Shown in pieces: positions 10,501 through 43,139 of a DNA stretch of 64,000 nt. The translations under genes and the position numbers were made by a program. The notes below the pieces were generated by a model. The model did no database searches. It was not told the origin of the DNA and was given only the letters and a program-made list of their open reading frames with translations. The stretch spans positions 127,556-191,555 of the forward strand of contig CAJXVM010000004.1 in assembly GCA_913061095.1 (NCBI GenBank), given 5' to 3'. Position 1 is the stretch's first letter, and each line of letters opens with the position of its first letter. This DNA comes from an uncultured Ignavibacteria bacterium (lineage in GTDB: Bacteria; Bacteroidota; Ignavibacteria; SZUA-365).

Positions 10501-13500
10501 GAGACCACGCGCTTCCTTTATGGCAGTGCCTACCGCGACGTGCGCGCATTGTACCGTGTACTGCGCCGCGGCGAACCGGAGCGCGAGGAGTGGAGCGATT
10601 TCGATGGTGACCTGCGAACGTTCGAACTCACGGCACAGGAAAAACATCGCGGCGGTTTCGTTGCGCAGATTTTCTTCGTGCGAAATTACCGTCTCTACCA
10701 GAAGACTGTCATCATTTCCGTTCCCTGGTCGAACAAGGATCTCGCCATCGAGACCGCGACCTTCCGCGACAAGCTGCGTCCGGGAGAGAAGGAGGAATGG
10801 CGTATCACGATCAAAGGAGCGAAGCGTGATCAGGTGGCCGCCGAAGTGCTGGCCTCCATGTACGACGCGTCGCTGGATGCCATATACAGGCAGGAGTGGC
10901 CGCGCTTCTCCTGGCCGTTTTTCGCCTGGCACGTCCAGACCTCCGATCACAGCTTCGGCGGCGCATCCGGCCAGCTCTACATGGACGACTGGAATGAGAG
11001 TCAGCCGTCATGGAATCAGCAGTACGACCGGCTGAATCTTTTCCTGCTTGGTCGCGGCCGCTATTTCTACGGTCAGCGGGCGTACATGCTGAAATCCACT
11101 GCCGTTGAAGAGGGAAGCATGGCGTTCGCCATGGGAGGTGAAGCGCCCCCGCCAGCGGCGGAAGCGGAGGACCGCGCTGTTCGTCGGGACAAAATGGAAG
11201 CGGTGCTCGACGAAGAGGCCGAGGTCGAGGAGAAGCCCGCAGAGGAAGGATCCGGTGAAGGCGGCCTCGACATGGTCAAGGCGCGCACGAATTTTGATGA
11301 AACCGCGTTTTTCTATCCCGACCTGCTGACGGACGAAGAGGGGAATGTCGTTCTGCGCTTCACCGCGCCCGAAGCGCTGACGCGCTGGAAGCTGAGGCTG
11401 TATGCGCATACGCCGGATCTGAAAACCGGTTATCTCGAAAAGACGGCGGTCACGCAGAAAGAGCTGATGGTCATGCCCAACATGCCGCGCTTTTTGCGCG
11501 AGGGCGATCGCATCGTGCTCATGACCAAGATCACGAACCTCTCCGACACGACGCTCAGCGGCACGGCCGTGCTGAAACTCTTCGACGCGCTGTCGATGCA
11601 GCCGATCGACGGGAAGTTCAATCTCCGCGACGCCGAACGCAGCTTCACTGCCGAGAAAGGGCGCAGCACGACCGCGCGTTGGGAAATCAGTGTGCCGGAG
11701 GGTGTGTCGGCCGTAACGTACCGTATCGTCGCGAAGGCCGGCAGTTTCTCCGACGGTGAGGAGATGGCGCTGCCCGTGCTGCCGAATCGCATGCTCGTCA
11801 CCGAAACCATGCCGATGAATATCCGCGGGGGACAGACGAAGGAGTTCACCTTCGAGAAGCTGGTGAACAGCGGTGCGTCGTCCACCCTGCGTCATCATCA
11901 GCTCACGCTCGAGATGACATCCCAGCCGGCCTGGTACGCGGTGCAGGCGCTGCCCTACCTGATGGAGTATCCCTACGAATGCTCCGAGCAGGTATTCAAC
12001 CGCTACTACGCCAACAGCATCGCCGGGCATATCGCCAACAGCAACCCGAAGATCAAACGCGTCTTCGATGCGTGGAAAAATACCGACGCGCTGCTCTCCA
12101 ACCTGCAGAAGAACCAGGATCTGAAGATGCTGCTGCTCGAGGAAACGCCCTGGGTGATGCAGGGCAAGGATGAAAGCGAACGCAAGAAGCGCATCGCCCT
12201 GCTGTTCGATCTCAACACCATGGGCAACAATCTCGAGAGCGCCATGCTCAAGCTGGAGAAGGCGCAGGCGAGCAACGGCGGCTGGCCGTGGTTCCCCGGT
12301 CTGCCCGAGAGCCGCTACATCACGCAGTACATCGTGGCAGGATTCGGACACCTCGACGCGTTGGATATCACCGTCAGTGACGAACGCGTCGCGCGCATGA
12401 TTCGCCGAGCCGTGAATTTCATGGACGAGCGCATGCACGCCGACTACCTCGAACTCAAGCGGCGTGAGGATGACACCTTCGATCCGGAAAAGGACTATCT
12501 CAATTACCTCGCCATACAGTACCTCTACGCCCGCAGCTATTTCCTCGATCAGGAGATTCCGGATCGCTACGATGAGTCGGTGAACTTCTGGCTCGAGGAA
12601 TCCCGCAAGTGGTGGGTGCGCCGCAATCACATGGCGCAGGGCATGATCGCGCTTGCCCTGCACCGCTTCCGCGACAGCGACGTGCCGATGGCCGTTGTGC
12701 GCTCACTGAAGGAGCGCGCACTGCAGAACGAGGAGATGGGCATGTACTGGAAATACGACCGCGGCTGGTTCTGGTACCAGGCACCGATCGAAACGCAGGC
12801 CCTGCTCATCGAGGTATTCGATGAAGTGGCGAACGACATGAACGCCGTCGAGGAAATGAAGATCTGGCTGCTCAAGCAGAAGCAGGTGCAGGACTGGGGA
12901 TCTACCGTCGCAACGGCCGAGGCCTGCTACGCGCTGCTGCGCCGCGGCAGCAATCTGCTCGCATCGGACAAGCTGGTGGAAGTCAGCATGGGCGGCGAGC
13001 GCATCGATCCGAAAGCCATGGGCGCGGACATCGAGGCCGGCACGGGACATTACCGCGTGGATTGGCGCCGCGGCGAGATCGATCCCGACATGGGACGCGT
13101 CACGGTGAAGAAGGAAGACCAGGGCATTGCCTGGGGCGCGTTGTACTGGCAGTACTTCGAACAGCTCGACAAAATCACGCCCGCACAGTCTCCGCTGCAG
13201 ATCGAGAAAAAGCTCTTCCGCCAGCGCAACACGGAGAAGGGCGTGGTGCTCGAACCGATCACCGGGGAGAATGCCCTCGAGGTAGGCGACGTGCTGAAGG
13301 TGCGCATCACGATTCGCGTGGACCGCGACATGGAATACGTGCATATGAAGGACATGCGCGGCGCTGGACTCGAACTGATCGAACAGCTCTCCGGCCATCG
13401 CTATCAGGGCGGTCTCATCTACTACGAAGCCCCGCGCGACGCCTCTGTGAATTTCTTTTTCCACTGGCTGCGCAAGGGCGTGCACGTGTTCGAGTACCCG

Positions 13501-13614
13501 CTGCGTGTCTCCCACGAGGGCCGCTTCTCAAACGGCATCTCCAGCATCCAGTGCATGTACGCTCCCGAATTCGCCGCGCATACGGCGGGGGTGACGGTTA
13601 CCGTTAAGCCGTAA
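7546..13614 (+). CDS. Alpha-2-macroglobulin family protein (2022 aa) with thioester motif CSEQ
   Basis: Signal peptide MLLSIRLAFLLLITAPVIFLSTE with GGAGAC as RBS. The size and MG-domain-like repeats fit bacterial A2M. The thioester-type motif is PYECSEQVF (CxEQ). The C-terminal receptor-binding-like domain is present. Confidence 0.8.
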   Translation: MLLSIRLAFLLLITAPVIFLSTELLEGLSYTTNWSVFMKGDYEEQWKEVDRALDEGLPKTALELVEKIYERAQREGNRPQIVKAISYRVALHSVTSEEDETVLIDDLETEIDAAEQPVRAILTSMLADLYWNYYQQNRWRIHERTQVEDDPAADFRTWDASVFFDTTAALYLQALEPADLLKDTPVEAYRDILHAGKDGEQYRPTMYDVLAHRALDFFENDETDLPSPQQDFEVTGLEALAPLDAFIATEFTSPNPSNTKYNAILLYQDLLRFHRDGGREEAVIDLDLQRLEFSRRITWHEDADTTFFQAVESIYGKYSSSPMSAQAGYVLADYHFDAGNYVEALACCRKEIERFPESRGAVNCRALESRILQKELSLTVEESMPPDAPFLISAGFRNIRDVHFRIVRMPSDALFSDRRGYRSARERLEDLLDGNVVKEWSQTLPVTDDYKKHLVDLRGPALPLGTYMLFMSHGADFSLDENAIAYAWLRVTRLSLQSLNEQRGGPNRFFVLDAVNGYPLEDVKVEMFTQRWESGSYRYERVPMGDRRTDANGSFTLEPGRDRQGRFFRLSLGKDTLAIGQSFYAWQRGSERAQRRTMFFTDRAIYRPGQTVHVKGIVLEGSSERADYAVVKNVRSTVVFYDANHQKIHETDVRTNEYGSFNTVFTVPSGVLTGMMSIRNEWGSTPLRVEEYKRPKFEVEFEPVKGTYRLNETVNVTGVAKAYAGANIDGAEVSWRVVRRTRYPYWFWWWRPIPRGEEREIAHGTTRTDADGRYEISFEALPDKSVDKSTQPVFTYEISADVTDINGETHSATASVSAGYTSIELGLRTAETVDVHEEAKIVITARNLGGEPVATDGTIVVERLDAPDRILRDRVLPKPDTWLLSEAEFVRDFPHDVYRDENIPDTWPVAERVVERRFRCGEEGEDSLRLADLEPGRYRITITAKDPSGEDLELKKFITAYRAEAPVPYAAPELYVENSTHVEPGETTRFLYGSAYRDVRALYRVLRRGEPEREEWSDFDGDLRTFELTAQEKHRGGFVAQIFFVRNYRLYQKTVIISVPWSNKDLAIETATFRDKLRPGEKEEWRITIKGAKRDQVAAEVLASMYDASLDAIYRQEWPRFSWPFFAWHVQTSDHSFGGASGQLYMDDWNESQPSWNQQYDRLNLFLLGRGRYFYGQRAYMLKSTAVEEGSMAFAMGGEAPPPAAEAEDRAVRRDKMEAVLDEEAEVEEKPAEEGSGEGGLDMVKARTNFDETAFFYPDLLTDEEGNVVLRFTAPEALTRWKLRLYAHTPDLKTGYLEKTAVTQKELMVMPNMPRFLREGDRIVLMTKITNLSDTTLSGTAVLKLFDALSMQPIDGKFNLRDAERSFTAEKGRSTTARWEISVPEGVSAVTYRIVAKAGSFSDGEEMALPVLPNRMLVTETMPMNIRGGQTKEFTFEKLVNSGASSTLRHHQLTLEMTSQPAWYAVQALPYLMEYPYECSEQVFNRYYANSIAGHIANSNPKIKRVFDAWKNTDALLSNLQKNQDLKMLLLEETPWVMQGKDESERKKRIALLFDLNTMGNNLESAMLKLEKAQASNGGWPWFPGLPESRYITQYIVAGFGHLDALDITVSDERVARMIRRAVNFMDERMHADYLELKRREDDTFDPEKDYLNYLAIQYLYARSYFLDQEIPDRYDESVNFWLEESRKWWVRRNHMAQGMIALALHRFRDSDVPMAVVRSLKERALQNEEMGMYWKYDRGWFWYQAPIETQALLIEVFDEVANDMNAVEEMKIWLLKQKQVQDWGSTVATAEACYALLRRGSNLLASDKLVEVSMGGERIDPKAMGADIEAGTGHYRVDWRRGEIDPDMGRVTVKKEDQGIAWGALYWQYFEQLDKITPAQSPLQIEKKLFRQRNTEKGVVLEPITGENALEVGDVLKVRITIRVDRDMEYVHMKDMRGAGLELIEQLSGHRYQGGLIYYEAPRDASVNFFFHWLRKGVHVFEYPLRVSHEGRFSNGISSIQCMYAPEFAAHTAGVTVTVKP

Positions 13615-13659
13615 CCCGTGTAAGCGCAGACGCGAAATTCATCTCGCGCTGATCACGTA

Positions 13660-13739
13660 AGTGCAAAGTACAAAGTGCAAAGTGCAAAAGTCAGTCGACA
13701 CACACTCCGTTTTCCGGAAGTGTTTTGCACTTTGCACTG
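13660..13739. terminator. Bidirectional terminator hairpin with 16-bp stem plus GTGCAAAGT direct repeats
   Basis: gtgcaaagtacaaagtgcaaagtgcaaaag...tgttttgcactttgcactg. AGTGCAAAGTGCAAAA pairs with TTTTGCACTTTGCACT across a ~33-nt loop. It lies between the convergent A2M and hydroxylase genes. Confidence 0.6.
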
Positions 13740-13774
13740 TTGAATGATAGGTGCACTTCGAGACGGAGAGATAC

Positions 13775-14569
13775 TCATTCCCCCGAGTACACATCCCCCT
13801 TCAGCGGCCGGAAGGCGAACAGGTGTTGACGAATGTAGTTTTTCGGAAATTCAATTTCCCTGAGTCCGTAACCGGCGGGTTTTTTCCGCTCGGGAAGAAA
13901 GCCGGTGCCGAAGATCCAGTCCCATATCGCCAGCTTGGTGGCGAAGTTGTACGAGCCATCCGCGACGACATCGGAGTGATGCCAGCGGTGCATCTCCGGT
14001 CCGTTGATCACGTACTGCAGCTTGCCGGTGTGCACGTCGATATTCGAGTGAATCCACATCCCCCAGATCGCAGATATCATGCCTTTGTAGAGGGCGACCT
14101 CGGGCGCGGCGCCGAGCAGGACAATGGGAGCGAACTCGATCGTCTGATTGATCAGGATTTCCAGCGAATGGGAGCGCGATCCCGAGAGCCAGTCCACGTC
14201 TTTCGTGGAGTGATGCGCCTCATGGATGCGCCAGAGGCGAATCGAGCGGTGCTGGATGCGGTGGAACCAGTAGATGTACAGGTCATGCGTCACCAGGAAG
14301 AGCAGCACCTGCAGCCACACGGGCCAGTGGGAAATCAGATGCATCCGCGACAGCATCGTACTCGCGTCGATCCACTGGATCAGCCAGTTGATCAGCAGTC
14401 CCAGGAGATAGCTCTGGACAATGGAATACATGATCAGATCATTCCAGAATCCTTCGCGCAGAAACTTCTGCTGCTCCTCGTACGGGAACAGCCGTTCGAA
14501 TGTGACGATGATCGCCGCCGCGATCACGATGACGAACGGGGATATCAGTTCGAGGCTCATTGATTGCAC
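13775..14569 (-). CDS. Fatty acid hydroxylase / sterol desaturase superfamily membrane protein
   Basis: Histidine boxes HRIQH, HEAHH and HRWHH sit in a polytopic hydrophobic protein. Confidence 0.8.
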   Translation of the reverse strand: MQSMSLELISPFVIVIAAAIIVTFERLFPYEEQQKFLREGFWNDLIMYSIVQSYLLGLLINWLIQWIDASTMLSRMHLISHWPVWLQVLLFLVTHDLYIYWFHRIQHRSIRLWRIHEAHHSTKDVDWLSGSRSHSLEILINQTIEFAPIVLLGAAPEVALYKGMISAIWGMWIHSNIDVHTGKLQYVINGPEMHRWHHSDVVADGSYNFATKLAIWDWIFGTGFLPERKKPAGYGLREIEFPKNYIRQHLFAFRPLKGDVYSGE

Positions 14570-14668
14570 GCCATCCTGTATGACAACATTCTGTGTGACA
14601 TGGCAGAACCGGACTCCGAGGGGAATCCGGTCCTGCAGGAGGGGGAATTGGAATCAGGTGTGCGTCCG

Positions 14669-15574
14669 TTATGCGACTTCCGGTTCCTCCTGCTTCAGAT
14701 GCACACGGCGAAGTTTCTTGCGCGGTGCGAGCTCGCTCTCGTACACGCGCTTGATTCCGTCACCGAGTGACTTTTCGATATCTCGAATGTTGGCGACGAG
14801 TCGGTATAGACCGCCGATTTCGACTGATGCGGCATGATCGGAACCCCACATGGCGCGATCAAGCGTGACATGTCGCTCGATGAACGTGGCGCCCATGGCG
14901 ACGGCGGCCCAGGTCGGTGCGAGGCCCGTTTCGTGACCGGAGTACCCGATCGGGGTGTCAGGATATTTCTGCATCAGTGTGTTCAGCATGCGGAGGTTGA
15001 GCTCGTTCACATCACAGGGGTAGGCGGATGTTGAATGGGCGATGAGCAGATTGTCTGTGCCGAGAACTTCCACGGCAGCTGCGATTTCCTCTGTGGTGGA
15101 CATCCCCGTGCTGATCATCAGCGGCTTTCCGGTTTCTTTCATGTGCTTCAGCAGTGCATGGTCGGTCAGCGAGGCGGATGGCGCCTTGTAAACCGGCGGA
15201 TCGAATTTTTCGATGGCATCGACGGACGGTTCATCCCAGCAGGAGGCGAACCAATGAATGCCCTTCTCCCCGCAGTAGCGGTCGATCTCCGCGTATTCAT
15301 CTTCGCCGAATTCGATCAGGTGCCGGTAATCGATATATCGCATGCGACCCCAGAGCGTGTCGCGCTCGACATCCCATTGATCACGGGGCACGCACAGCTC
15401 CGGTGTGCGCTTCTGAAACTTGACTGCATCGCAGCCGGAGAGAGCGGCGCCGTCGATGAGCTTTTTTGCGAGGTCAAGAGAACCGTTGTGATTGATGCCG
15501 ATCTCGGCGATGACATACACGGGATGTCCGCTGCCGACGGTTTTCTCTCTGATCTGGCGTATGGGATTGCTCAT
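14669..15574 (-). CDS. N-acetylneuraminate/pseudaminate synthase (NeuB/SpsE) family PEP-condensing enzyme, without C-terminal SAF/antifreeze-like domain
   Basis: VYVIAEIGINHNGSLDLAKKLID...DAVKFQKR...GYSGHE is the NeuB TIM-barrel signature. The internal ATG at 15574 is preceded by AGGAGAAGG, whereas the ORF-track start at 15622 has no RBS. The protein is ~302 aa, too short to carry an SAF domain. Confidence 0.75.
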   Translation of the reverse strand: MSNPIRQIREKTVGSGHPVYVIAEIGINHNGSLDLAKKLIDGAALSGCDAVKFQKRTPELCVPRDQWDVERDTLWGRMRYIDYRHLIEFGEDEYAEIDRYCGEKGIHWFASCWDEPSVDAIEKFDPPVYKAPSASLTDHALLKHMKETGKPLMISTGMSTTEEIAAAVEVLGTDNLLIAHSTSAYPCDVNELNLRMLNTLMQKYPDTPIGYSGHETGLAPTWAAVAMGATFIERHVTLDRAMWGSDHAASVEIGGLYRLVANIRDIEKSLGDGIKRVYESELAPRKKLRRVHLKQEEPEVA

Positions 15575-15781
15575 GCGGTGATCCTTCTCCTGGTGCGGTG
15601 AATGTTTCCAGGAAAAGTACACGCGCTCCGTTACGGAAGATTGAGCGGTCCGTTAAAAGTGATGTAAGGATTGATGTGCCGAGGGTAAGCGCTGTGTTCG
15701 GGCTGTGTGAGGGGGATGGACTGCAGATGACAGATTGCGGATTTCAGATGTCGCATACCGCAATAATCAGTATCGACTATC

Positions 15782-15809
15782 TGCAATATGCAATTTGCAA
15801 TCTGCAATG
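15782..15809. repeat. 4x tandem 7-bp repeat TGCAATn in a 265-bp AT-richer intra-cluster gap
   Basis: ctgcaatatgcaatttgcaatctgcaatga, read directly. It sits between the KdsC-like and NeuB-like genes. Confidence 0.5.
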
Positions 15810-15839
15810 ACTGAGCAGGAATCGCAGGAGGGTGTTGGA

Positions 15840-16475
15840 TCAGGTCGACGTTTGTCGAAGTGTAATGATGGCCTCGGCGAAGTCACGAAATGCTCCATTG
15901 CCGCCGCGCCAGTGGCAGACGTACTGGGCGAGATCGTGAATCTGCGGCATGGCATCGGCCGGTGCGGCGGTGAATCCGCGTTCTCCGATCACGTCCATGA
16001 TGCCGATGTCGTTGACATCGTCTCCGATGTAGGCGATTTCCTCGGTGGAAAGGCCGGTTTCATTCCGAATGTGGCTGAGCGTTGCGATCTTGTCCCTGAC
16101 CCCGAGGTAAAGGTGTTTGAGTTTCAGCTTCTCGGCGCGCCGTTCGAGATTCGGTGACTGTTCTCCGGTGATGATGCCCGTCTCGATGCCGAGCAGTCCC
16201 AGGCGCTCCATGCCCATGCCGTCACGGATGCTGTAGCGCTTGACGAGCTCACCATCCGCGCCGTAGTACACGCCGGTGTCCGTGAGCACACCGTCGTTGT
16301 CGGTCAGGACAAGGCGGATGCGACGCGCCCGGCGCGCGGCTTCGTCATAACTCAAATGCTGCAGAGTGCCAAGCAGACTGGAGAGCACGGTGTTTGCGGG
16401 CAGAGTATGCATGCGGGAAACATACTTGTCACCTGAATGACTTCCAAAGCGGAGTTTACCACGCTGTCCAGCCAC
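15840..16475 (-). CDS. HAD-superfamily KdsC-like (3-deoxy-ulosonate-phosphate) phosphatase
   Basis: RLVLTDNDGVLTD (DxDGV motif I), GIITGEQS and IGDDVNDIGIM (motif III) resemble KdsC/YrbI. The start is ambiguous: GTG at 16475 overlaps the SDR stop, and the alternative ATG is at 16412. Confidence 0.65.
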   Translation of the reverse strand: MAGQRGKLRFGSHSGDKYVSRMHTLPANTVLSSLLGTLQHLSYDEAARRARRIRLVLTDNDGVLTDTGVYYGADGELVKRYSIRDGMGMERLGLLGIETGIITGEQSPNLERRAEKLKLKHLYLGVRDKIATLSHIRNETGLSTEEIAYIGDDVNDIGIMDVIGERGFTAAPADAMPQIHDLAQYVCHWRGGNGAFRDFAEAIITLRQTST

Positions 16476-17277
16476 CGTCGACCACCAGATTTGCTCCTGT
16501 CATGTAGCGGGACGCATCGCCGGCGAGAAATACAATTCCACCGCGGTAATCCGTCGGACGCGCCATCTCACCCAGCGGCGTGCGGCGCGAATAGTTTTCC
16601 ACGAAATGCCTGTCCTGACCGTTCTGCACTCCGCCCGGTGACAGCGTATTTACCCGCACACCGGCCGCTCCCCAGTACGATGCGAGGAAGCGTGTGAAAT
16701 TGATGATTGCTCCTTTGGCCGTCGGATAGACGGCGGATTTGTAAAACGTCTGCGTGCCGTCCTCATTCCGGTACAGCGACTGGTCCGGCGCAACCATCCC
16801 GTATGTCGATGCGATGTTGATGATGCTGCCGCCGCCCTGTTCAGCCATGTGCGCGCCGAACACCTGGCTGCAGATGAAGGCTCCGGTCACGTTGACGTCC
16901 AGGCAGCGCCGCCAGAGATCAATCGGATAGTTCTCGAATCGGGAGGCCTCCAGTGCGGATACGGGATCCTCCACCATGTCGTTGATCGCGGCGTTGTTGA
17001 CGAGAATGTGTACGCGGCCGAATGCCTCGACAGCAGCATCGAACAGTGCGCGGACGGAGACGGGATCGGTGATGTCCGCCGCCATGCCCATGCAGCGCCG
17101 ACCGCTTTCAGCGGAGAGCTCCTCCGCGAACGACGCGCAAGCTTCGGCGTCCAGGTCGGTGGCGATGACGCTGGCGCCCGCCTCGGCAAGTGCGCGGCAG
17201 TGCTCGCGGCCGATCAGACCGAGTGCCCCGGTGACCACCGCCGTGCGGCCCTCGAGAGAAAACATCGAAGAAGTCAT
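16456..17277 (-). CDS. SDR family NAD(P)-dependent oxidoreductase
   Basis: TGALGLIG Rossmann motif, NNAA, and catalytic YPTAK. Confidence 0.8.
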   Translation of the reverse strand: MTSSMFSLEGRTAVVTGALGLIGREHCRALAEAGASVIATDLDAEACASFAEELSAESGRRCMGMAADITDPVSVRALFDAAVEAFGRVHILVNNAAINDMVEDPVSALEASRFENYPIDLWRRCLDVNVTGAFICSQVFGAHMAEQGGGSIINIASTYGMVAPDQSLYRNEDGTQTFYKSAVYPTAKGAIINFTRFLASYWGAAGVRVNTLSPGGVQNGQDRHFVENYSRRTPLGEMARPTDYRGGIVFLAGDASRYMTGANLVVDGGWTAW

Positions 17278-17281
17278 GCTT

Positions 17282-18235
17282 TCAGTTGTTCCTTGTCTTC
17301 AGTTCAAGATCGGCATAGACGGGATAATGATCCGACAGGGTGAAATCGTGGAGCACGCCGTAGTCATGCACATGCCAGTGACGGCTGAACATGATGTAGT
17401 CGAGCGTCCGATTCGGCAGCCCGGTCGGATAGGTGTAGAACGGCAGCGAATCGTCGTGCGGCACCGTGCGCAGGCCCGTATCCTCGAGAATCCGCAGCGT
17501 ACTGTCGTCATGGTAGTTGTACCGGTCGATATCCCCCTTGCCGAATTTCTCGATACGGCAGCCCGGAGCGACGGTGTTGAAATCCCCCATGAATACGATC
17601 GGCACATCCCCGAGCTTTCGCAGTACCTGCGCGATGCTCCGGGCCTGGCGCATGCGGGATTCCGGACTGTACGCATGGAGGTGGGTGTTGCCGATCCAGA
17701 TGATGCTGTCCTTGAGGAGAAACGGCGCCAGCGTGAAACCGCAGGAGGCGAGAAAGAATACTTTCCCCGGCAGCAGGTGATTGTAGGCCTGCTCCGAAAG
17801 CTTGGGCAGCTGGCTGAGCATCAGGTTCTGGTAGCGGAAGCCCGCGAATCCGACACCGTGCTCAAGTACGGAGTCGAAGCCGCTGAGAACGCGGTAGTGA
17901 TCGCGCTGCCGGTATTTCCCGATGATTTTTTCACTGACACCCAGCACGCCGTTGAAGACTTCCTGCAGTGCGACGACGTCGTAGTTCTGCCGGTGGCGAT
18001 TCAGCCACTCCGAGATGAAATACGCGTAGGCACGCGTTTCATGCATCAACTCGATGCGCTGCGCTTCCTCCTCCTTCGCACCCGCGAGTGCGAACGGAAG
18101 CTTGGGACCCTGGCCGCGATGCGTGTTGATGGTGAGGCAGCGGAGTCGGTATTCACGCAGCAGCGGCTGTGTGTCATGCGATTGAAGCAGGGAGGAGCGC
18201 TTGCGCAGTGCTTCCGATGCTATCTGTGTGATCAT
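17282..18235 (-). CDS. Endonuclease/exonuclease/phosphatase (EEP) family protein
   Basis: The C-terminal SDHYPV motif and the GDFN and NTHL signatures match the EEP fold. Confidence 0.65.
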   Translation of the reverse strand: MITQIASEALRKRSSLLQSHDTQPLLREYRLRCLTINTHRGQGPKLPFALAGAKEEEAQRIELMHETRAYAYFISEWLNRHRQNYDVVALQEVFNGVLGVSEKIIGKYRQRDHYRVLSGFDSVLEHGVGFAGFRYQNLMLSQLPKLSEQAYNHLLPGKVFFLASCGFTLAPFLLKDSIIWIGNTHLHAYSPESRMRQARSIAQVLRKLGDVPIVFMGDFNTVAPGCRIEKFGKGDIDRYNYHDDSTLRILEDTGLRTVPHDDSLPFYTYPTGLPNRTLDYIMFSRHWHVHDYGVLHDFTLSDHYPVYADLELKTRNN

Positions 18236-18265: not shown

Positions 18266-19606
18266 TCAGGCAAGGGGCTTTCTCGCCTTGGTGTGGAAAT
18301 TGCTTGTCTTACGGAACACCGGCTCAACCGGCTCGCCGCGCAGGCGCGCGGGAAGCTCGCCTGCATCAACGGCATCACGGAGCAGGCCGAGGACCTCGCG
18401 GTATGCCGACAGCGTGTACGCGACGTCGTCATCGCTGTGACTGAATGACATGTTGTGGAAACCGGACCACAGGATGCCACGTTTGATCATCTCCTGCTGC
18501 ACGTAGGATTTCTGCAGCAGTGGATCGCCGGCGGATGCATCGAAGGTGACGATGGTGCGGGGAGCGAAACCCTTGCATCCGACGTACGGCATGCTCAGCT
18601 CCGCGGCGATGGCATTGACACCGTCCCTGAGTTTTCGTCCCTGATGGAACAGATGTTCCTGCACGTTCCGGCGGCGCATCTCCTCGATCGTGGCTCTGGC
18701 CGCTGCCAGCGAGAGCGCCTCTCCTCCGAAGGTCGTGTAGAAGAAGACATCCTGCTCGCAGAGCTCCATGATGTCTTTCCGCCCGGTGAGGATGGATAAG
18801 GGCATGCCGTTTGCGACCGCTTTCGAGAAGCAGGCCAGATCGGCCTTGATCCCGAAGTATTCCTGTGCCCCGCCCAGTGCGAGACGGAATCCCGTCCACA
18901 TTTCATCGAAAATCAGCAGTGTGCCGTTGCGCTCGCAGGCATCTTTCAGCTCGTGCAGGAAGTTGTTCTCTGGCGCATCGAACACCACAGGTTCGAGAAT
19001 CACGCATGCCGTGTCCTCATCCAGCGAATCAATGACGGATTGAATGTCGTTGTAGTTCACCGTGTACGTGAGATCACGCACCGCCTGGGGAATGCCCCGG
19101 TTGCGGTCGGTCACGGCAATGTACCAGTCATGCCAGCCATGGTAGCCGCAGCAGAGCACCGTGCTGCGGCCCGTATACGCTCGCGCCAGGCGCACCGCGG
19201 CGGAAGTCACGTCGTTGCCCGACTTGGAATACCGCACCATGTCCGCATTGGGGATGACCTCGCGGAGCAGTTCGGCGACCTCCACCTCGAGAGGATGCAC
19301 GAGCGAAAAGGTGATCCCACGCTCGAGCTGCACGCGAATGGCATCATCGACGGCGTCGTATGCGTATCCGAGCGAGATGGGACCGATGCCCATGTTGTAG
19401 TCGATGTACTCGTTTCCGTCAACATCGACGATGTGCGCCCCCTTCGCGCGGTCGATGAACTTCGGAGCCGCGCCGCGCACATACTGACCGGGACCCTTGG
19501 CGAGTGTCTGCGTCTGGCTGGGGATCAGTCCGAGCGCCCGCGCATACAACGCGTCGGATTGTGTGATATCGGGATAGTCCTGGTTGAACGCAATGGTATT
19601 TGGCAT
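18266..19606 (-). CDS. Class-III PLP-dependent aminotransferase (glutamate-1-semialdehyde aminomutase-like)
   Basis: GNEYIDY...SGNDVTSAAVRLAR...LIFDEMWTGFR...FSKAVANG contains the PLP lysine. Confidence 0.8.
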   Translation of the reverse strand: MPNTIAFNQDYPDITQSDALYARALGLIPSQTQTLAKGPGQYVRGAAPKFIDRAKGAHIVDVDGNEYIDYNMGIGPISLGYAYDAVDDAIRVQLERGITFSLVHPLEVEVAELLREVIPNADMVRYSKSGNDVTSAAVRLARAYTGRSTVLCCGYHGWHDWYIAVTDRNRGIPQAVRDLTYTVNYNDIQSVIDSLDEDTACVILEPVVFDAPENNFLHELKDACERNGTLLIFDEMWTGFRLALGGAQEYFGIKADLACFSKAVANGMPLSILTGRKDIMELCEQDVFFYTTFGGEALSLAAARATIEEMRRRNVQEHLFHQGRKLRDGVNAIAAELSMPYVGCKGFAPRTIVTFDASAGDPLLQKSYVQQEMIKRGILWSGFHNMSFSHSDDDVAYTLSAYREVLGLLRDAVDAGELPARLRGEPVEPVFRKTSNFHTKARKPLA

Positions 19607-19612
19607 GGTGTC

Positions 19613-20578
19613 TCAGAGATAGGTTTTGAACAGACTGCTCGTGTGATTGAGCATGGGTTTTTTGTCTCGATCTCCCTCCAGTGCTCGCAGAATGCGCACG
19701 GCAATGGCGCTTCCGGTGAATCCCTCATGTTCGAGCACGCGGTCGAGCGTTGCCGGTGTGAACCAGCGATGCTTCAGCGCAATCGGAAGGACGTCGGCCG
19801 TGAGCTGCTGCTGCATCATCAGTTCGGCGAGGATGGTGGTCAGTCCGCCCGTGAGGAAATGATCCTCGAGCGTGACGACCAGCGAACAGTCGCGGACCGC
19901 GGCGGCGATGGTTTCTTCATCTATCGGTTTGAGGCTCCGCAGGTTGATGACGCGGCATGCGAGGCCCTCGGCGTTCAGAAGCGTTTCCGCCGCGAGCGCT
20001 TCGCGCAGCAGAAACCCGTAGGTGAGAATGGCGACGTCATTGCCGTCGGTGAGTGTTTCCGCCTTCCCGATTGCAAACGGCGCGTGCGCCGTGACGGCCG
20101 GGAGGGCGTTGAAGCGCACATAGGCGGGAAAGGGGGATGCGACGATCCGCGGCAGCGCTTCCAGCATGTCGTCGTTGTCCGCGGGCGCGAACACCTGCAT
20201 CGGCGGGATGCCGCGCATCAGTGCGATGTCTTCAACTGCCTGGTGTGTCGGACCGTTTCCGTCCGACAGGAATCCGGGGACGGCACCGATGAGTTTCACT
20301 GGGAGCCCAGGAATCCCCACATCCGTTCGGATGAATTCGAATGCGCGAAGTGTCAGGAAAGTTGCCAGCGCATGCACGATGGGGATTCGTCCCCGCAGGG
20401 CCAGTCCGGCAGAAGCACCGACCATTGTCATTTCACTGATACCGACATCAATCAGTCGATCGCCGACGTGAGGAGGAAGATTTCGGATTGCAGCGCGATT
20501 CTCCGCGGTCATGATGACCACACGCTCATTCTCTGTGGTCATCTCTCGAAGAAGTTCTTCGTATGTCATGGTATGCAT
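19613..20578 (-). CDS. Transketolase C-terminal section (pyrimidine-binding + C-terminal domain subunit)
   Basis: It resembles split-transketolase subunit B, with GISEMTMVGASAGLA and a PTHQAVEDIALMR-like region. Confidence 0.75.
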   Translation of the reverse strand: MHTMTYEELLREMTTENERVVIMTAENRAAIRNLPPHVGDRLIDVGISEMTMVGASAGLALRGRIPIVHALATFLTLRAFEFIRTDVGIPGLPVKLIGAVPGFLSDGNGPTHQAVEDIALMRGIPPMQVFAPADNDDMLEALPRIVASPFPAYVRFNALPAVTAHAPFAIGKAETLTDGNDVAILTYGFLLREALAAETLLNAEGLACRVINLRSLKPIDEETIAAAVRDCSLVVTLEDHFLTGGLTTILAELMMQQQLTADVLPIALKHRWFTPATLDRVLEHEGFTGSAIAVRILRALEGDRDKKPMLNHTSSLFKTYL

Positions 20579-20607: not shown

Positions 20608-21465
20608 TCAGCGCACGTGAAGCGTGTCAGAAGTCAGGGCCGCATTGCCGATGCCATGCAGCTCATCGAGCAGCATGTCGACTTCCTCCGCGGTGAAATT
20701 GACGAACCACCGGTCCGCCCGCGCCTCGATGCTCGGAAGACCCTTGCCGCGCACGGTGTCGGCGATGATCATGCTTGGACGCCGCTTCTCAAGCGGCAGA
20801 TCGGAAAAAACCTCGTCCATTGCGTCGAAAGAATGCCCGTCGATCCGGCGCACCGCCCAGCCGAAGGAAGCGAATTTCTCCTCGAGCGGCTCCAGTGGAA
20901 TCAACTCCTCGGTGCGCATGTTCGCCTGGAACCCGTTGCGGTCAACCACCACCACGAGATTATCGAGCTTGTGCGCGCCGGCGACAAGGCAGCCTTCCCA
21001 GATCGATCCCTCGTTGAGTTCACCGTCACCGAGCATGACAAACACGCGGTTTGCGGCCTTGCGCAGCTTGATGTCCAGAGCAACGCCGATGCCCACCGAC
21101 AGCAGATGTCCGAGCGACCCCGAGTGGAATTCCACCCCCGGAATGTTCCGGTTCGGGTGCCAGTAGATCGAATCGTTCGTGCGCAGGTGATTGCCCAGCC
21201 GCGCTCCGTCGATGTATCCGAGTTCGGCGAAGGTCCCGTAAACAGCCGGGACATCATGCCCTTTCGAGAGCAGGAAGTAATCCCGGTCGGGATCGTCAAC
21301 GCGGTCCGGCGCGATGTTGAGAATCCTGCGATACAGGTAGACGATGAGATCCGCGCATGACAGCGATGCACCGATGAAACACCCTCCGTCGGTCGCCAGG
21401 CGGATGATGTGTTCACGGACCCGCATCGCGGTTTGCAGCAGTTCCTGTTTTTCAGATGCGTTCAT
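20608..21465 (-). CDS. Transketolase N-terminal section (TPP-binding subunit)
   Basis: GHDVPAVYG...GSLGHLLSVGIG...GDGELNEGSIWE is the TPP-binding motif. The likely start is the internal ATG at 21465; the ORF track extends to 21513. Confidence 0.75.
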   Translation of the reverse strand: MNASEKQELLQTAMRVREHIIRLATDGGCFIGASLSCADLIVYLYRRILNIAPDRVDDPDRDYFLLSKGHDVPAVYGTFAELGYIDGARLGNHLRTNDSIYWHPNRNIPGVEFHSGSLGHLLSVGIGVALDIKLRKAANRVFVMLGDGELNEGSIWEGCLVAGAHKLDNLVVVVDRNGFQANMRTEELIPLEPLEEKFASFGWAVRRIDGHSFDAMDEVFSDLPLEKRRPSMIIADTVRGKGLPSIEARADRWFVNFTAEEVDMLLDELHGIGNAALTSDTLHVR

Positions 21466-21484: not shown

Positions 21485-22321
21485 TTATGAAATGGCGAGA
21501 GAGCCGCGTGCATCTCTCGACCGTGGTGTGCGTGTTCTGTTCGCGTCGATGGTCTTCAGCTCACTGAGATGGTGACGGTACCAGTTGACGCCTGCATACA
21601 CATCGTTGATGCGAGCCAGCTCGGGTTCGCGCTGCAGCAGCCCGAGAATGTCGTCAATGCCGAAGCGCGGTGCGCCCTCCGAATACAAGGCGTCGTAAAC
21701 CTTCCGGATAAACTGGTAATCTTCGGGGTAGTCGATGGTCCAGCGATGCGACATGGAATAATCGAAGCCGCTCTCCCATGTAACGTTCCCGATGCGGTAT
21801 CGATCGGGCTGCTCCCAGATGAACGGTGTGGTGTGTTCGCGCTCCAGCGGTCGGGAAGCCTTTTTCCACGCCTCATGCAGTATGGCGATCGGCATCACCT
21901 CGACGTCATTGCCGTCTGGCCAGCTCGCGGGATGAAGATTGCTGACATAGTCGTAGCTCCGGTGATGCGCGATCCAGTACGACAGCACCCGGTCGATGAC
22001 CGCAGGATCAATCAGGGGACAGTCGGACGGAATCTTTACGACGACGTCTGCGTCATAGAGCAGCGCTGCGCGATAGTGCCGGTCGAGCAGGTCGAACGGA
22101 TCACCGCTGTAACAGGGTATGCGCTGCTGGCCGCACAGCACCCGGATATCCGTGTCGTCGGGATCCGTCGTCGTCGCAACCACGACCGTCATTGGAGTCC
22201 GTGCCATTCGAACCCGCTCCACCATGCGCAGAAGCAGCGGTTTGCCCGCAAGGGGGAGCAGCACCTTGCCCGGCAATCGGCTGCTCCCCGTGCGTGCCTG
22301 AATGATGGTGATGATATTCAT
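21485..22321 (-). CDS. Acylneuraminate cytidylyltransferase family protein (SpsF/PseF/KdsB-like CMP-sugar synthetase)
   Basis: The true start MNIITIIQARTGSSRLPGKVL is the classic CMP-Kdo/NeuAc synthetase N-terminal motif. The upstream 81 codons of the ORF are a non-coding extension. Confidence 0.75.
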   Translation of the reverse strand: MNIITIIQARTGSSRLPGKVLLPLAGKPLLLRMVERVRMARTPMTVVVATTTDPDDTDIRVLCGQQRIPCYSGDPFDLLDRHYRAALLYDADVVVKIPSDCPLIDPAVIDRVLSYWIAHHRSYDYVSNLHPASWPDGNDVEVMPIAILHEAWKKASRPLEREHTTPFIWEQPDRYRIGNVTWESGFDYSMSHRWTIDYPEDYQFIRKVYDALYSEGAPRFGIDDILGLLQREPELARINDVYAGVNWYRHHLSELKTIDANRTRTPRSRDARGSLAIS

Positions 22322-22325
22322 GCTG

Positions 22326-23384
22326 TCAGCTCCGCATCGTGGAGAAAAGACGTGCAACGTACCGCAGGGGACGTACCCCGCCCTGATACAGCGGAGCATT
22401 GATCCAGCGGTCCGTCCGCCGTGATGTTGGTGTGTCTGCGAGCACGCTGCGGCAGACGTCGGCGATATTGCGTGCGGAAGTCCCGCCGTTCTGTATCGGT
22501 GTCTGCCGGCGCAGTTCCTCCATGTCGAATTCCGAGTACACTTCCTTGCCGAGTGCGAGGCCAATGTATACGACAGTGGAAAAGCGCGTGATGAGTACCT
22601 CGCAGTTTGCGATCATGTGCTCGATATTGCCATCGGTGAAGACGAGCGCGTCTGGGACTTCCTCTCGAATTTCCTGGATCGCGCGTGCATGATTCTCATT
22701 CGGGTGGAGCTTGAAGATAAGCTGCCGCCCGGCGGCGACCTCCCGGCTGCGCCGGATCAGCCTGCGCCTGTTTTCGAACTTGAAGGTTTCGCGCGCGTCA
22801 CTCGTCGCTACGAGCACGAAATCCCGATGCGGAAAATCGTTGTCATGGAACTGCGCGCAGTTATCGAAGTTGGGAATACCGGTCACTTCCAGTTTCTCCG
22901 GTGTTACCCCCTTGCGGATGAACAGGTCGCGGTATCCCTCGCTTGCGACGCAGAATTTTTCATATGTGTCGCTGAGTCCTGTCGTGGCCGTGCTCGCGAG
23001 ATACCGTGGCAGACGGAGATGCCTGACGAGATGATAGGCGAAGCCTTCCGGATCGGTCATCCCCTCCTGCACGAGCACGATCGGACAGCGGCGCGCGTTG
23101 CTCGGGACGATGAGATCACTGCAGGTGAGGACGAGGTCATAATCGTTGTTCATGCCGTATTCATCTATCTGCAGATCATGTGACCGCAGGTAACGCAGGG
23201 CACGATTGCGCAGCTTGTTGCCGAGGATCGTGAATTCCAGAAACCCGTTGCGGCTGAGCCAGCGCAGCAGCGCGTCACCGTAGAACGGCGTGAAGAAGTG
23301 CTCCGCCTCCGGCAGGTGCTGCGCGATCTGATGCATCTGTGACGTCTGGTTCAATGATCCGCATATATAGAGAATTCGAGGCAT
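22326..23384 (-). CDS. Hypothetical protein, possibly GT-B fold glycosyltransferase (TagF/KpsS-like) acting on the CMP-sugar
   Basis: Rossmann-like N-terminus MPRILYICGS and a KLHPNE segment. This is cluster context only; no firm family assignment can be made by eye. Confidence 0.3.
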   Translation of the reverse strand: MPRILYICGSLNQTSQMHQIAQHLPEAEHFFTPFYGDALLRWLSRNGFLEFTILGNKLRNRALRYLRSHDLQIDEYGMNNDYDLVLTCSDLIVPSNARRCPIVLVQEGMTDPEGFAYHLVRHLRLPRYLASTATTGLSDTYEKFCVASEGYRDLFIRKGVTPEKLEVTGIPNFDNCAQFHDNDFPHRDFVLVATSDARETFKFENRRRLIRRSREVAAGRQLIFKLHPNENHARAIQEIREEVPDALVFTDGNIEHMIANCEVLITRFSTVVYIGLALGKEVYSEFDMEELRRQTPIQNGGTSARNIADVCRSVLADTPTSRRTDRWINAPLYQGGVRPLRYVARLFSTMRS

Positions 23385-23391
23385 GTCGTTC

Positions 23392-24447
23392 CTACGCTTT
23401 CATGAAAGCGGGTTTGAAAGGATTGACGCGAAGATACGCGAACAGGCTGATGCCGCTGCAGGCCCACAGCAGCTCCTTCCCCCGACGGAGAATGATAAAC
23501 GCGGCCGCGATGGCGGCGGCTTCCGGAATTGCAAAGGCCGTCAGTATGCTGAGGATTCCGACCTCCTGCGCGCCGATGGCGGACGGGATGAAGAAAAAGA
23601 CAAGCTTGACCACGGAAAGCGTTGCCTCGAGAGCGATTGCCTGCATGATGCTCATGCCGGATCCCAGAAGTGCCAGGATCAGCCAGGTTTCGAACGCCAT
23701 GGCGAACCAGCTGAGCAGAAACAGCAGCAGGGCGCGCAGCAGTCGCGTGCGGTGATGGCGCGCGAAGCCCGTCACATACCGGTCGATGTCTGCGACGGCA
23801 TTGCGGATGCGCGCAGCACCGCGCTGCAGCAGGGGAATCCGAATGCGTCCGAGCAGCGCGGTGATCTGTGTCAGCCGCGCACCGCTGTATGGCAGAGAAA
23901 GCACGATCCCCGCGGAGGCGGCGAGCAGGAAGGTTCCGGCGATGGAGGATGGGGATGAAAACAGTCCCAGCTCCCCGAGCGATGACGCGTGAAGCGAAAA
24001 TGCGAAGATCAGCCCGGTGATGATGAAACCGATCTGCGCGACGGCGATGTTGATTTTCGACAGCAGCGTCGATGCCACGGCGTCGGTCATCCGCAGACCG
24101 AACCGATCACGCAGCAGCAGCGGACGCAGGGTTTCCGCGAATGCGACGCCGGCGGGGAAGGTGTTCATGACGGCATCTGTCGACAGTCGGATGACGAACA
24201 TCTCACGAAGCGGCACGTGCTCACTTCCTGTCACGCACTGGCGCCAGCCGGCCGCGTCCAGAAGGATGACGGTACCGTAAGGAAGAACGATCAGTGCTGC
24301 CGCACCGCCGATCCCCTCAAGCAGACGAAGCACCTGCGCACCGTCCAGTTCACGGAACTGGCTCCATATGAACCACGCGAGCACTGCCACAATGAACAGC
24401 CGGACCGCATTCAGGAGCATCGATCGTATGGATGGCCTGGATACCAT
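23392..24447 (-). CDS. Lysylphosphatidylglycerol-synthase-TM-region (UPF0104) flippase-like integral membrane protein
   Basis: ~8 predicted TM helices, 351 aa, with the typical LPG_synthase_TM architecture. Confidence 0.6.
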   Translation of the reverse strand: MVSRPSIRSMLLNAVRLFIVAVLAWFIWSQFRELDGAQVLRLLEGIGGAAALIVLPYGTVILLDAAGWRQCVTGSEHVPLREMFVIRLSTDAVMNTFPAGVAFAETLRPLLLRDRFGLRMTDAVASTLLSKINIAVAQIGFIITGLIFAFSLHASSLGELGLFSSPSSIAGTFLLAASAGIVLSLPYSGARLTQITALLGRIRIPLLQRGAARIRNAVADIDRYVTGFARHHRTRLLRALLLFLLSWFAMAFETWLILALLGSGMSIMQAIALEATLSVVKLVFFFIPSAIGAQEVGILSILTAFAIPEAAAIAAAFIILRRGKELLWACSGISLFAYLRVNPFKPAFMKA

Positions 24448-37616: not shown

Positions 37617-37661
37617 ACTGTTTCTATGGTTGAATGGGACAACACGTGATTCCTGCAGATG

Positions 37662-43120: not shown

Positions 43121-43139
43121 GTGTTCTCCTGTAAGTGCG

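Follow-up and report, generated by a model that had tools for sequence, protein, structure and literature searches.

In a 64,000-nucleotide stretch of DNA from an uncultured Ignavibacteria bacterium (GenBank assembly GCA_913061095.1, contig CAJXVM010000004.1, positions 127,556 to 191,555 of the forward strand; here called the window, with positions counted from its first nucleotide), a gene for a NeuB-family synthase that lacks an SAF domain lies beside a gene for a KdsC-like phosphatase of the haloacid dehalogenase (HAD) type. The residues that the two proteins carry suggest that they very probably work via a 9-phosphorylated nonulosonate, like the 2-keto-3-deoxynononic acid (Kdn) pathway of Bacteroides thetaiotaomicron, and their genes form the heart of a conserved operon, a larger cluster that was not mentioned in the initial annotation of this DNA. 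We consider it reasonably probable that the pair carries out condensation and dephosphorylation in a phosphorylated Kdn-type route, within an operon making a modified cytidine monophosphate (CMP)-activated sugar, and the product is likely to be a CMP-activated, aminated Kdn-type sugar. A route through a phosphorylated intermediate had already been proposed in the initial annotation, and it is supported here by glutamate and lysine residues in the phosphatase like those of the B. thetaiotaomicron enzyme BT1713, by the adjacency of the two genes in 63 of 79 loci, and by the synthase residues K55-R56 and R84, shared with the two characterised Kdn 9-phosphate (Kdn-9-P) synthases.

The synthase gene (14669..15574, minus strand) encodes a putative Kdn-9-P-type synthase of 301 amino acids (aa); the longest open reading frame (ORF) is 14669-15622, and public gene calls on identical DNA use the ATG at 15574. 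The protein is a TIM barrel with a full-length match to the Pfam NeuB family (PF03102, model positions 1-241 of 241, E 1.6e-73, 247.6 bits), and a Pfam search found no SAF domain in it. It scores below the cut-offs of both the NeuB/NnaB equivalog TIGR03569 (243.2 bits against 399.65, matching model positions 1-278 of 329 only) and the PseI model TIGR03586 (186 bits against 340.25). In alignment with the Neisseria meningitidis enzyme NmNeuB, residues E24, K52, Q54, K130, S133 and S155 correspond to E25, K53, Q55, K129, S132 and S154, and residues Y185, S212, H214, E233, H235 and D246 correspond to Y186, S213, H215, E234, H236 and D247; H214 and H235 match the metal-binding histidine pair, and F112 and E134 of NmNeuB are replaced by Trp and Ser. 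The aligned residues other than the glutamates are taken to be ligands of the metal, phosphoenolpyruvate (PEP) or aldose. Three glutamates of NmNeuB, E25, E134 and E234, have been named as potentially catalytic (PMC8208679). Judged by this alignment, the catalytic residues of the NeuB barrel are intact in the window protein. An AlphaFold2 (AF2) model with a predicted local distance difference test (pLDDT) score of 83.5 forms a complete barrel, with low confidence in the last ~30 residues, and has TM-scores of 0.76-0.81 to PseI, the SAF-less Leptospira enzyme 6NCS and NmNeuB (0.81 to 6NCS and 1XUU). Both genes are thus where the initial annotation had placed them, on the minus strand, and the lengths it quoted are also correct; the active-site alignment to NeuB and Kdn-9-P synthases that it had suggested finds the catalytic residues conserved and K55, R56 and R84 as in the Kdn-9-P synthases.

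The short length of the synthase is genuine. A frameshift concealing an SAF domain, which had been raised as a way in which the initial annotation might fail, was looked for and not borne out, and a hidden SAF domain is ruled out by three observations: the synthase stop codon is followed after 99 bp by the next gene of the operon (13775-14569, an FA_hydroxylase family member), ten independent public contigs, deposited at ENA, JGI and elsewhere, carry a gene call for exactly this 301-aa protein, and orthologues are uniformly ~300 aa long. The median for 66 orthologues in the loci that we fetched is 298.5 aa, and the 120 best database homologues measure 290-337 aa and contain PF03102 only. As likely orthologue of the B. 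thetaiotaomicron synthase BT1714 we took the gene adjoining a 99%-identical BT1713; in our alignment (A3) the window family ends, in KKLRRV, exactly where the SAF domain of this protein starts (KLERSI).

Loss of the SAF domain is neither new nor a marker of phosphorylated substrates. Presence of the domain does not track the use of phosphorylated or free substrates, because the likely BT1714 orthologue (346 aa) has it, the proven Kdn-9-P synthetase of Prymnesium parvum (312 aa) does not, and ~30% of 13,941 catalogued nonulosonic acid synthases, mostly from environmental bacteria, are also without it (PMC8208679). The same three facts leave the suggestion of the initial annotation, that the missing domain hints at a different acceptor substrate, without support, and our own candidate rule that SAF loss marks phospho-substrate use was discarded once the likely BT1714 orthologue was found to carry the domain. 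In NmNeuB, Arg314 of the SAF domain reaches into the active site of the partner subunit and acts on N-acetylmannosamine (ManNAc) (PMC8208679).

The neighbouring gene (15840..16412, minus strand; longest ORF 15840-16475) encodes a 190-aa KdsC-like HAD-IIIA protein, a putative nonulosonate-9-phosphate phosphatase. It passes the KdsC-subfamily (YrbI/KdsC) model TIGR01670 (134.9 bits, cut-off 106.95) and scores 133 bits, below the cut-off of 208, with the KdsC equivalog NF007019; its best NCBIfam model is the KDN-9-P phosphatase equivalog NF058599 (143.2 bits, cut-off 180). Its best match in the PDB is BT1713, the KDN-9-P phosphatase (KDN9PP) of B. thetaiotaomicron, at 40% identity. The deposited BT1713 variants 4HGQ and 4HGR depart from the wild type at E56 and K67, and these two residues are reportedly, in work by Daughtry and colleagues from 2013, what sets specificity for 9-phosphates as against 8-phosphates. 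The TGEQS and AEKLK motifs of the window protein align with TGEKT and AEKLK of BT1713, placing Glu and Lys at the two positions; in the KdsC structures 7T35 and 3IJ5 these residues are Arg and Thr (TGRK or TGRR, and TLG). The DxD motif together with this Glu and Lys is present in all 70 phosphatase homologues from the fetched loci, a set made up of 68 proteins encoded beside an SAF-less NeuB (including loci L001-L003, from the window organism) and two beside the SAF-containing synthase of Bacteroides. A housekeeping KdsC was considered and rejected on the Glu/Lys residues, the equivalog score and the synteny; the possibility, noted in the initial annotation, that the phosphatase would prove to be the KdsC of the normal Kdo (3-deoxy-D-manno-octulosonic acid) pathway is disfavoured on the same evidence.

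Loci were collected by the presence of the same synthase family at 60% identity or more, and 79 of them had enough upstream sequence to be scored; in 63 the phosphatase gene is directly upstream of the synthase gene on the same strand. The pairing of synthase and phosphatase is not by chance. A scan of GTDB species genomes with the synthase gave at least 600 matches, and the best 80 of these loci, in which the synthase is 64-76% identical to that of the window, belong to Chlorobiota, Ignavibacteriota, Bacteroidota, Myxococcota, Chloroflexota, Calditrichota, a metagenome-assembled genome (MAG) of Methylococcaceae, and Actinomycetota. In Streptomyces the phosphatase domain is fused to a NeuA cytidylyltransferase and stands directly before a 67%-identical SAF-less NeuB, with a GT2 protein nearby. 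Streptomyces, being Gram-positive, are taken to make neither Kdo nor lipopolysaccharide (LPS). On that assumption the fusion of phosphatase to NeuA excludes a housekeeping role in Kdo synthesis there. Published descriptions of SCO4880/4881 as NeuA/NeuB, and of SCO4878-SCO4881 as a whole, fit these loci (PMC3479208), which appear to be orthologous to SCO4880/4881, and a Kdn-containing teichulosonic acid is present in Streptomyces walls (PMC11481543).

Comparison with proven Kdn-9-P synthases points in the same direction as the gene order. The window synthase is 34% identical to the P. parvum Kdn-9-P synthetase, whose sequence was taken from the supplement of PMC6200933, and 35% identical to the likely BT1714 orthologue. 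A K-x-Q/T-K-R motif, together with an Arg in the motif Y..[YH]R..LE[FL] of the beta2-alpha2 loop, is common to the window family, the Streptomyces protein and both Kdn-9-P synthases; NmNeuB, SpsE, PseI and 6NCS have neither the K-R nor the loop Arg. These residues, K55, R56 and R84 in the window protein, are invariant in a 12-member alignment of the family across phyla. In the human enzyme the alpha2-beta2 loop favours phosphorylated substrate (PMC8208679). We infer that the shared basic residues bind phosphate. In the 64-kb window itself there is no second copy of NeuB, KdsC or any other cluster gene except an unrelated, 30%-identical short-chain dehydrogenase/reductase (SDR) at 36879-37622.

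The known systems resemble the window pair in different respects. In the B. thetaiotaomicron Kdn pathway (BT1714/BT1713) a NeuB-family synthase likewise has as neighbours a cytidylyltransferase and a HAD-IIIA phosphatase of small size. Glu56 and Lys67 are common to the phosphatases, and the K-R and the loop Arg to the synthases; unlike the window protein, the likely BT1714 orthologue carries an SAF domain, and the Bacteroides loci belong to polysaccharide clusters of the ordinary sort, in which an aminotransferase, SDR, transketolase-like enzyme and fatty acid (FA) hydroxylase are all missing. The P. parvum synthetase converts mannose 6-phosphate (Man-6-P) and PEP and does not convert free mannose, and BT1714 also uses Man-6-P (PMC6200933). 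Like the window protein, the P. parvum enzyme is SAF-less, ~310 aa long, and has KFQKR, the loop Arg and a Ser at the position of NmNeuB Glu134; it differs in being eukaryotic, with no cognate phosphatase found (PMC6200933) and no downstream modification enzymes. The Streptomyces locus of the SCO4879-SCO4881 type has the same orthologous SAF-less synthase family (66-68% identity) and an adjacent phosphatase domain of the KDN9PP type, and differs in that this domain, ~33% identical, is fused to NeuA, in its acceptor, a Gram-positive wall polymer, and in having no aminotransferase, SDR, transketolase-like enzyme, FA hydroxylase or homologue of the putative transferase described below.

The vertebrate NANS/NANP system and a fusion protein of Leptospira interrogans follow the same scheme, in which PEP is joined to a 6-phosphorylated hexose and a dedicated phosphatase acts afterwards. 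Human NANS retains the antifreeze-like (SAF) domain. The substrate of NANS is ManNAc 6-phosphate (ManNAc-6-P) (PMC8208679), and the NeuB of L. interrogans is fused to an endonuclease-like putative phosphatase domain, from which the authors read an animal-like route (PMC3438082). That phosphatase domain is endonuclease-like and not of the HAD type, whereas the window has a separate gene of the endonuclease/exonuclease/phosphatase (EEP) family in addition to the HAD gene. As to the later steps, a parallel is the synthesis of 8-amino-8-deoxy-Kdo (Kdo8N) in Shewanella, said to have been described by Gattis and colleagues in 2013 and reportedly comprising KdsC, the dehydrogenase KdnB, the aminotransferase KdnA and KdsB. 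There too an ulosonate phosphate is dephosphorylated, the freed terminal hydroxyl is oxidised and transaminated, and the sugar is activated with CMP. KdnB is an iron-containing alcohol dehydrogenase and KdnA a DegT-type enzyme; the Shewanella pathway therefore draws these two from other protein families, and it differs further in its C8 sugar and in having no transketolase-like enzyme.

The operon around the pair consists, in the window, of 11 consecutive genes on the minus strand, from 24447 down to 13775. Searches with the window proteins (tblastn) showed that nine of them keep a fixed order, GTx-CTP-TktN-TktC-AT3-SDR-HAD-NeuB-FAH, at 50-70% identity in many loci of Bacteroidota, Ignavibacteriota, Myxococcota, Chloroflexota and Calditrichota, where GTx stands for an unnamed GT-B-fold protein, CTP for the cytidylyltransferase, TktN and TktC for a split transketolase-like enzyme, AT3 for a class-III aminotransferase and FAH for the FA hydroxylase. 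Among 57 loci with at least 7.5 kb of sequence upstream of the synthase, all seven upstream genes are present in 16, all but the transketolase-like pair in eight (from Ignavibacteria), all but the phosphatase in four and all but the phosphatase and SDR in one; the phosphatase is the only one of the seven in 21 (Streptomyces and Chlorobiaceae), and the remaining seven have partial or no matches. The minimal form, a HAD-NeuB-FAH triad, occurs in a Chlorobiales MAG, and a Chloroherpeton locus (L004) has EEP-SDR-HAD-NeuB-FAH, with no aminotransferase, GTx or cytidylyltransferase within 10 kb. In the same Chloroherpeton thalassium locus, an NTP_transferase/hexapeptide sugar-1-phosphate nucleotidylyltransferase gene (11884-12861) follows the FAH-ended block, in place of CTP_transf_3. 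All-against-all clustering of flanking ORFs brought out no further widely conserved neighbours. Cultured carriers are Hymenobacter setariae Fur1, with the full cluster, C. thalassium ATCC 35110, with a partial one, and Chlorobaculum thiosulfatiphilum DSM 249, with the phosphatase-synthase pair. We found no description of the nine-gene cluster, of its rebuilt transketolase-like enzyme or of the GTx family in the searchable literature.

Directly upstream of the phosphatase lies the SDR gene (16456..17277, minus strand; Pfam adh_short_C2, E 7e-49), a candidate for oxidation of a sugar hydroxyl to the carbonyl before transamination. Its nearest NCBIfam models, all below cut-off, are of the gluconate 5-dehydrogenase and KduD types, and it is syntenic at 52-70% identity in ~40 loci. 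AT3 (18266..19606, minus strand; Pfam Aminotran_3) is a class-III pyridoxal phosphate (PLP) enzyme resembling glutamate-1-semialdehyde (GSA) aminomutase, putatively responsible for amination, which scores 391.8 bits with NF004856 (cut-off 486) and is syntenic at 57-72% identity; its PDB relatives include GSA aminomutases, an aminopentol aminotransferase and aminoglycoside C-6' aminotransferases, and some of these, such as the C-6' enzymes, act on terminal aldehydes or amines. The cytidylyltransferase (21485..22321, minus strand; CTP_transf_3 of the SpsF/KdsB/NeuA type, Pfam E 6e-23), which would activate the ulosonic acid with CMP, has as best PDB match 6OEW, 'Cytidylyltransferase', followed by CMP-Kdo synthetases, and is syntenic at 52-66% identity. 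At the downstream end, FAH (13775..14569, minus strand) is a membrane di-iron enzyme (Pfam FA_hydroxylase, E 1.6e-29, 103.5 bits against a cut-off of 31) described here as OlsE-like from its best NCBIfam match, the ornithine-lipid hydroxylase OlsE model NF052566 (136.5 bits, cut-off 475), and its gene follows the synthase directly in 40 of 75 loci.

The two window genes outside the nine are presumably accessory. The EEP family gene (17282..18235, minus strand; Pfam Exo_endo_phos, E 6e-15) was found among the other loci in Chloroherpeton only, and a sequence search of the PDB gave no relative of its product, which may be a separate parallel to the endonuclease-like phosphatase domain of the L. 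interrogans NeuB fusion. At the upstream end, a membrane protein with a flippase-like domain (23392..24447, minus strand; Pfam LPG_synthase_TM, E 3.5e-22) is HpnL-like, scoring 92 bits, below cut-off, with the HpnL model TIGR03476; homologues 28-32% identical to it lie upstream of GTx in four Myxococcota loci (L007, L013, L019 and L030).

The transketolase-like enzyme is split into an N-terminal subunit, TktN (20608..21465, minus strand; Pfam Transketolase_N), and a C-terminal subunit, TktC (19613..20578, minus strand; Pfam Transket_pyr and Transketolase_C), and we compared the pair with the proven split transketolase of Carboxydothermus hydrogenoformans and with human transketolase, drawing orthologues from loci L007-L086. 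TktN retains SKGH, WHP, GDGE..EG and DRN, conserved in 20-22 orthologues, which we take to be the thiamine diphosphate (ThDP)-binding motifs SKGH, [G/W]HP, GDGE..EG and D.N. It has Phe in place of the His of both sgHpG and wHg (GGCF.GASLS and RWF.NF) in 22-24 orthologues. In TktC the His of tHaG has become Val or Phe, the Asp of GEDG is replaced by Asn and the Ser of KST by Ala, and DADLSKST reads TAENR..RNL; these changes too are conserved in orthologues. The replaced residues are presumably those that bind the C1-hydroxyl of the donor, the substrate phosphate and the C2-hydroxyl of the acceptor in the yeast, Escherichia coli and human enzymes. With these active-site residues replaced, ordinary glycolaldehyde transfer between ketose phosphates is not expected of the enzyme, and a canonical transketolase supplying sugars of the pentose phosphate pathway, which we had considered, is unlikely. 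By its motifs the pair looks like a distinct subfamily, presumably ThDP-dependent; one may speculate that, with hydrophobic residues at the donor site, it would take a donor of the acetyl type, for example pyruvate, as DXS does. A Polyangiaceae cluster without this special pair (L030, 11783-13800) has a second split pair, 33% identical and possibly canonical, downstream of its FA hydroxylase gene.

GTx (22326..23384, minus strand) is the putative transferase for the CMP-activated sugar. All its homologues are annotated 'hypothetical', with occasional weak matches to Epimerase_2 or Glyphos_transf, and its AF2 model (pLDDT 82.5) has a GT-B fold. With Epimerase_2 (PF02350, UDP-GlcNAc 2-epimerase/NeuC) it scores 14.7 bits, below the cut-off of 30.6, and alignment to a Bacteroides epimerase profile (hhalign) covers the C-terminal domain only, at a probability of 1.3%. 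The His of KLHPNE is retained, and the UDP-binding stretch DSGG..EE reads TRFSSVVY. The family has invariant QEG and HP motifs, which resemble the D/E-D/E-G and HP motifs of bacterial sialyltransferases. A bona fide epimerase has no support from the profile comparison, and a fold search alone cannot tell an epimerase from a transferase. We favour a role for GTx as transferase for the CMP-sugar, a NeuC-like epimerase role being less likely.

Taken as a pathway, the synthase would condense PEP with a hexose 6-phosphate, most likely Man-6-P, to the 9-phosphate of a 3-deoxy-non-2-ulosonic acid, from which the KDN-9-P-phosphatase-like HAD enzyme would strip the 9-phosphate. The SDR would then convert a sugar hydroxyl to a carbonyl, the transketolase-like enzyme would carry out a ThDP-dependent step in the lineages that have it, which are most, and the class-III aminotransferase would aminate the carbonyl; the SpsF/NeuA-type cytidylyltransferase would form the CMP-sugar, and the GT-B protein would pass it to an acceptor, possibly a membrane lipid. 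Gene content, conservation and synteny, together with the intact catalytic residues and the residues of specificity type, are direct observations; condensation and dephosphorylation are well supported, and the later steps (oxidation, the ThDP step, amination, activation and transfer) we infer, as we do the substrate, the order and position of amination, the reaction of the transketolase-like enzyme and the acceptor. Amination at C9, at the hydroxyl exposed by the phosphatase, is an attractive choice, since oxidation and amination there would mirror the synthesis of Kdo8N and would explain why the phosphatase has been retained; the alternative is C5, where KduD-like oxidation would lead to neuraminic acid. 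A lipid acceptor is hinted at by the two membrane proteins that flank the cluster, the OlsE-like hydroxylase and an MprF/HpnL-like protein. Overall, the probable product of the cluster is an acidic sugar with an amino modification, destined for the cell surface.

A bolder version of this pathway, in which the cluster makes a sugar new to nature, is in our view unlikely. The product would be a zwitterionic amino-ulosonic acid with nine or eleven carbons, formed by oxidation at C9, a two-carbon extension where the transketolase-like enzyme is present, transamination, CMP activation and attachment by GTx to a membrane lipid, which would be modified by the OlsE-like hydroxylase and flipped by the MprF/HpnL-like protein. 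The Phe residues that replace both histidines of the donor hydroxyl suggest that the extension would draw on a donor of the acetyl type, pyruvate for instance, and not on one of glycolaldehyde. If this were true, a bacterial 'sialo-lipid' head group would be common to Bacteroidota, Ignavibacteriota, Chlorobiota and Myxococcota.

Several points weigh against the phosphorylated Kdn-type route followed by amination. Identities of 34-35% to proven Kdn-9-P synthases are barely above the 29-33% found with PseI, SpsE and NeuB. The phosphatase is below the cut-off of the KDN9PP equivalog, and five loci have an otherwise complete-looking cluster without a phosphatase. The transketolase-like enzyme is unexplained, and it is absent from the eight otherwise complete clusters of Ignavibacteria. 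SDRs more often oxidise secondary alcohols, a point that bears on the position of amination; and the cluster may contain no transferase, given that the folds closest to GTx are NeuC-type epimerases.

The transketolase-like enzyme would gain a role if amination came first, with this enzyme, AT3 and the SDR building an amino-sugar 6-phosphate (for example mannosamine 6-phosphate from a ketose phosphate), the synthase making the 9-phosphate of neuraminic acid or of an analogue, and the phosphatase acting last before CMP activation. Chemical reasoning allows that a 2-amino polyol could in principle be formed from a ketose by a transketolase and a transaminase, and all the enzymes concerned are co-conserved; a neuraminic-acid-containing aminoglycosphingolipid has also reportedly been described in Chlorobium, for which we found no report in the searchable literature. 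We nevertheless regard this order as rather unlikely, in that the residues for the donor C1-hydroxyl and the sugar phosphate are lost, making ordinary ketose-phosphate chemistry improbable, and eight complete clusters do without the transketolase-like enzyme. Moreover, in Streptomyces and Chlorobiales neither an aminotransferase nor an SDR gene lies near that for the same synthase (66-74% identity), which argues that the substrate of the synthase is an ordinary metabolite. Were GTx instead a divergent hydrolysing UDP-GlcNAc 2-epimerase of the NeuC/GNE type, an animal-like route could run, with a kinase encoded elsewhere, through ManNAc-6-P and N-acetylneuraminic acid (Neu5Ac) 9-phosphate to Neu5Ac, and the cluster would hold no transferase. 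This seems distinctly unlikely given the sub-threshold Epimerase_2 score and the replaced UDP-binding stretch of GTx, and a kinase and an acetyltransferase are absent from the cluster; such a route would also leave the aminotransferase, SDR and transketolase-like enzyme without a role, and the nearest organisms of known chemistry, Streptomyces, make Kdn.

It is very improbable that the two genes represent an ordinary arrangement, a canonical NeuB acting on unphosphorylated ManNAc placed by chance beside a housekeeping KdsC. The match of the phosphatase to TIGR01670 and the lack of a second KdsC-like gene in the window are what would be expected of it; set against these are the adjacency across phyla and the NeuA fusion in Streptomyces, the Glu and Lys that replace Arg and Thr of KdsC, the scores of both proteins below their KdsC and NeuB equivalog cut-offs, and the absence of an SAF domain to supply the Arg314 that NmNeuB uses on ManNAc. 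There is equally little to recommend a synthase that takes a sugar phosphate of another chain length, a pentose 5-phosphate or heptose 7-phosphate, and yields an ulosonate phosphate of the C8 or C10 type. In its favour, an unusual sugar phosphate could in principle come from a dedicated transketolase-like enzyme, and the Glu134 position of NmNeuB is Ser in the synthase family. Against it, the Kdn-9-P synthase of P. parvum has the same Ser, the phosphatase is of the kind of KDN9PP, which is specific for 9-phosphates, and not like an 8-phosphate enzyme, and the Streptomyces in which the protein is 67% identical are producers of Kdn. The phosphorylated Kdn-type route thus remains the reading that we prefer.

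Between the phosphatase and synthase genes lies a spacer of 265 bp (15575..15839, minus strand), compared with 4-43 bp for the other gaps in the operon, which may be an internal regulatory element. It contains TGCAAT/ATCTGCA repeats with a period of 7 nt and an inverted repeat (15722-15749 and 15779-15806), and for its minus-strand RNA a hairpin, imperfect and ~90 nt long, is predicted (-38.1 kcal/mol, z -3.47, with none of 200 shuffled sequences as stable). No Rfam family was found in the spacer, the whole window yielding two tRNAs only, and no promoter or terminator signal at 13500-16600 stood out from the shuffled background.

The surroundings of the cluster hold genes of other kinds. Directly upstream is an inositol-monophosphatase-family gene (24542-25342, minus strand) with a HisN score of 270.9 bits against a cut-off of 275, probably an unrelated housekeeping gene that is not conserved beside the cluster elsewhere, and further on a 449-aa metallophosphoesterase-like ORF (26638-27987, minus strand) weakly matches the NCBIfam model 'DS9_1 anti-phage phosphoesterase' (E 6e-14), with a score far short of the cut-off. 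Immediately downstream, on the opposite strand, a 2022-aa alpha-2-macroglobulin-like protein (7546-13614, plus strand; MG2, A2M and bMG10 domains) is encoded beside a 1096-aa protein (4115-7405, plus strand) with LTD, DUF5689 and PLDc_2 domains and a type-IX secretion sorting domain (Por_Secre_tail). Elsewhere in the window are a gene for a 757-aa AroB-AroA fusion (56591-58864, plus strand), combining the N- and C-terminal domains of 3-dehydroquinate synthase with an EPSP synthase domain, and one for cytochrome c552, an NrfA-type nitrite reductase (41651-43219, minus strand), which fits a facultatively anaerobic Bacteroidota-like organism and is unrelated to the cluster.

The pair described here is a further Kdn-9-P synthase and phosphatase, in a kind of pathway already known. 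Making sialic-acid-type sugars by a phosphorylated route is commonly described as a speciality of animals, with a few exceptions among bacteria. The SAF-less synthase and its KDN-9-P-type phosphatase form a bacterial module that is very widespread and conserved to an unusual degree, with 66-76% identity across phyla. The K-R and loop Arg of the synthase and the Glu and Lys of the phosphatase provide sequence markers for predicting the route from genomes, and may help annotation. The cluster in which the module is embedded, with its rebuilt ThDP-type enzyme and its unnamed GT-B family, offers a concrete lead, open to experiment, towards an amino-ulosonic acid that would be new, and possibly towards a new class of surface glycolipid.

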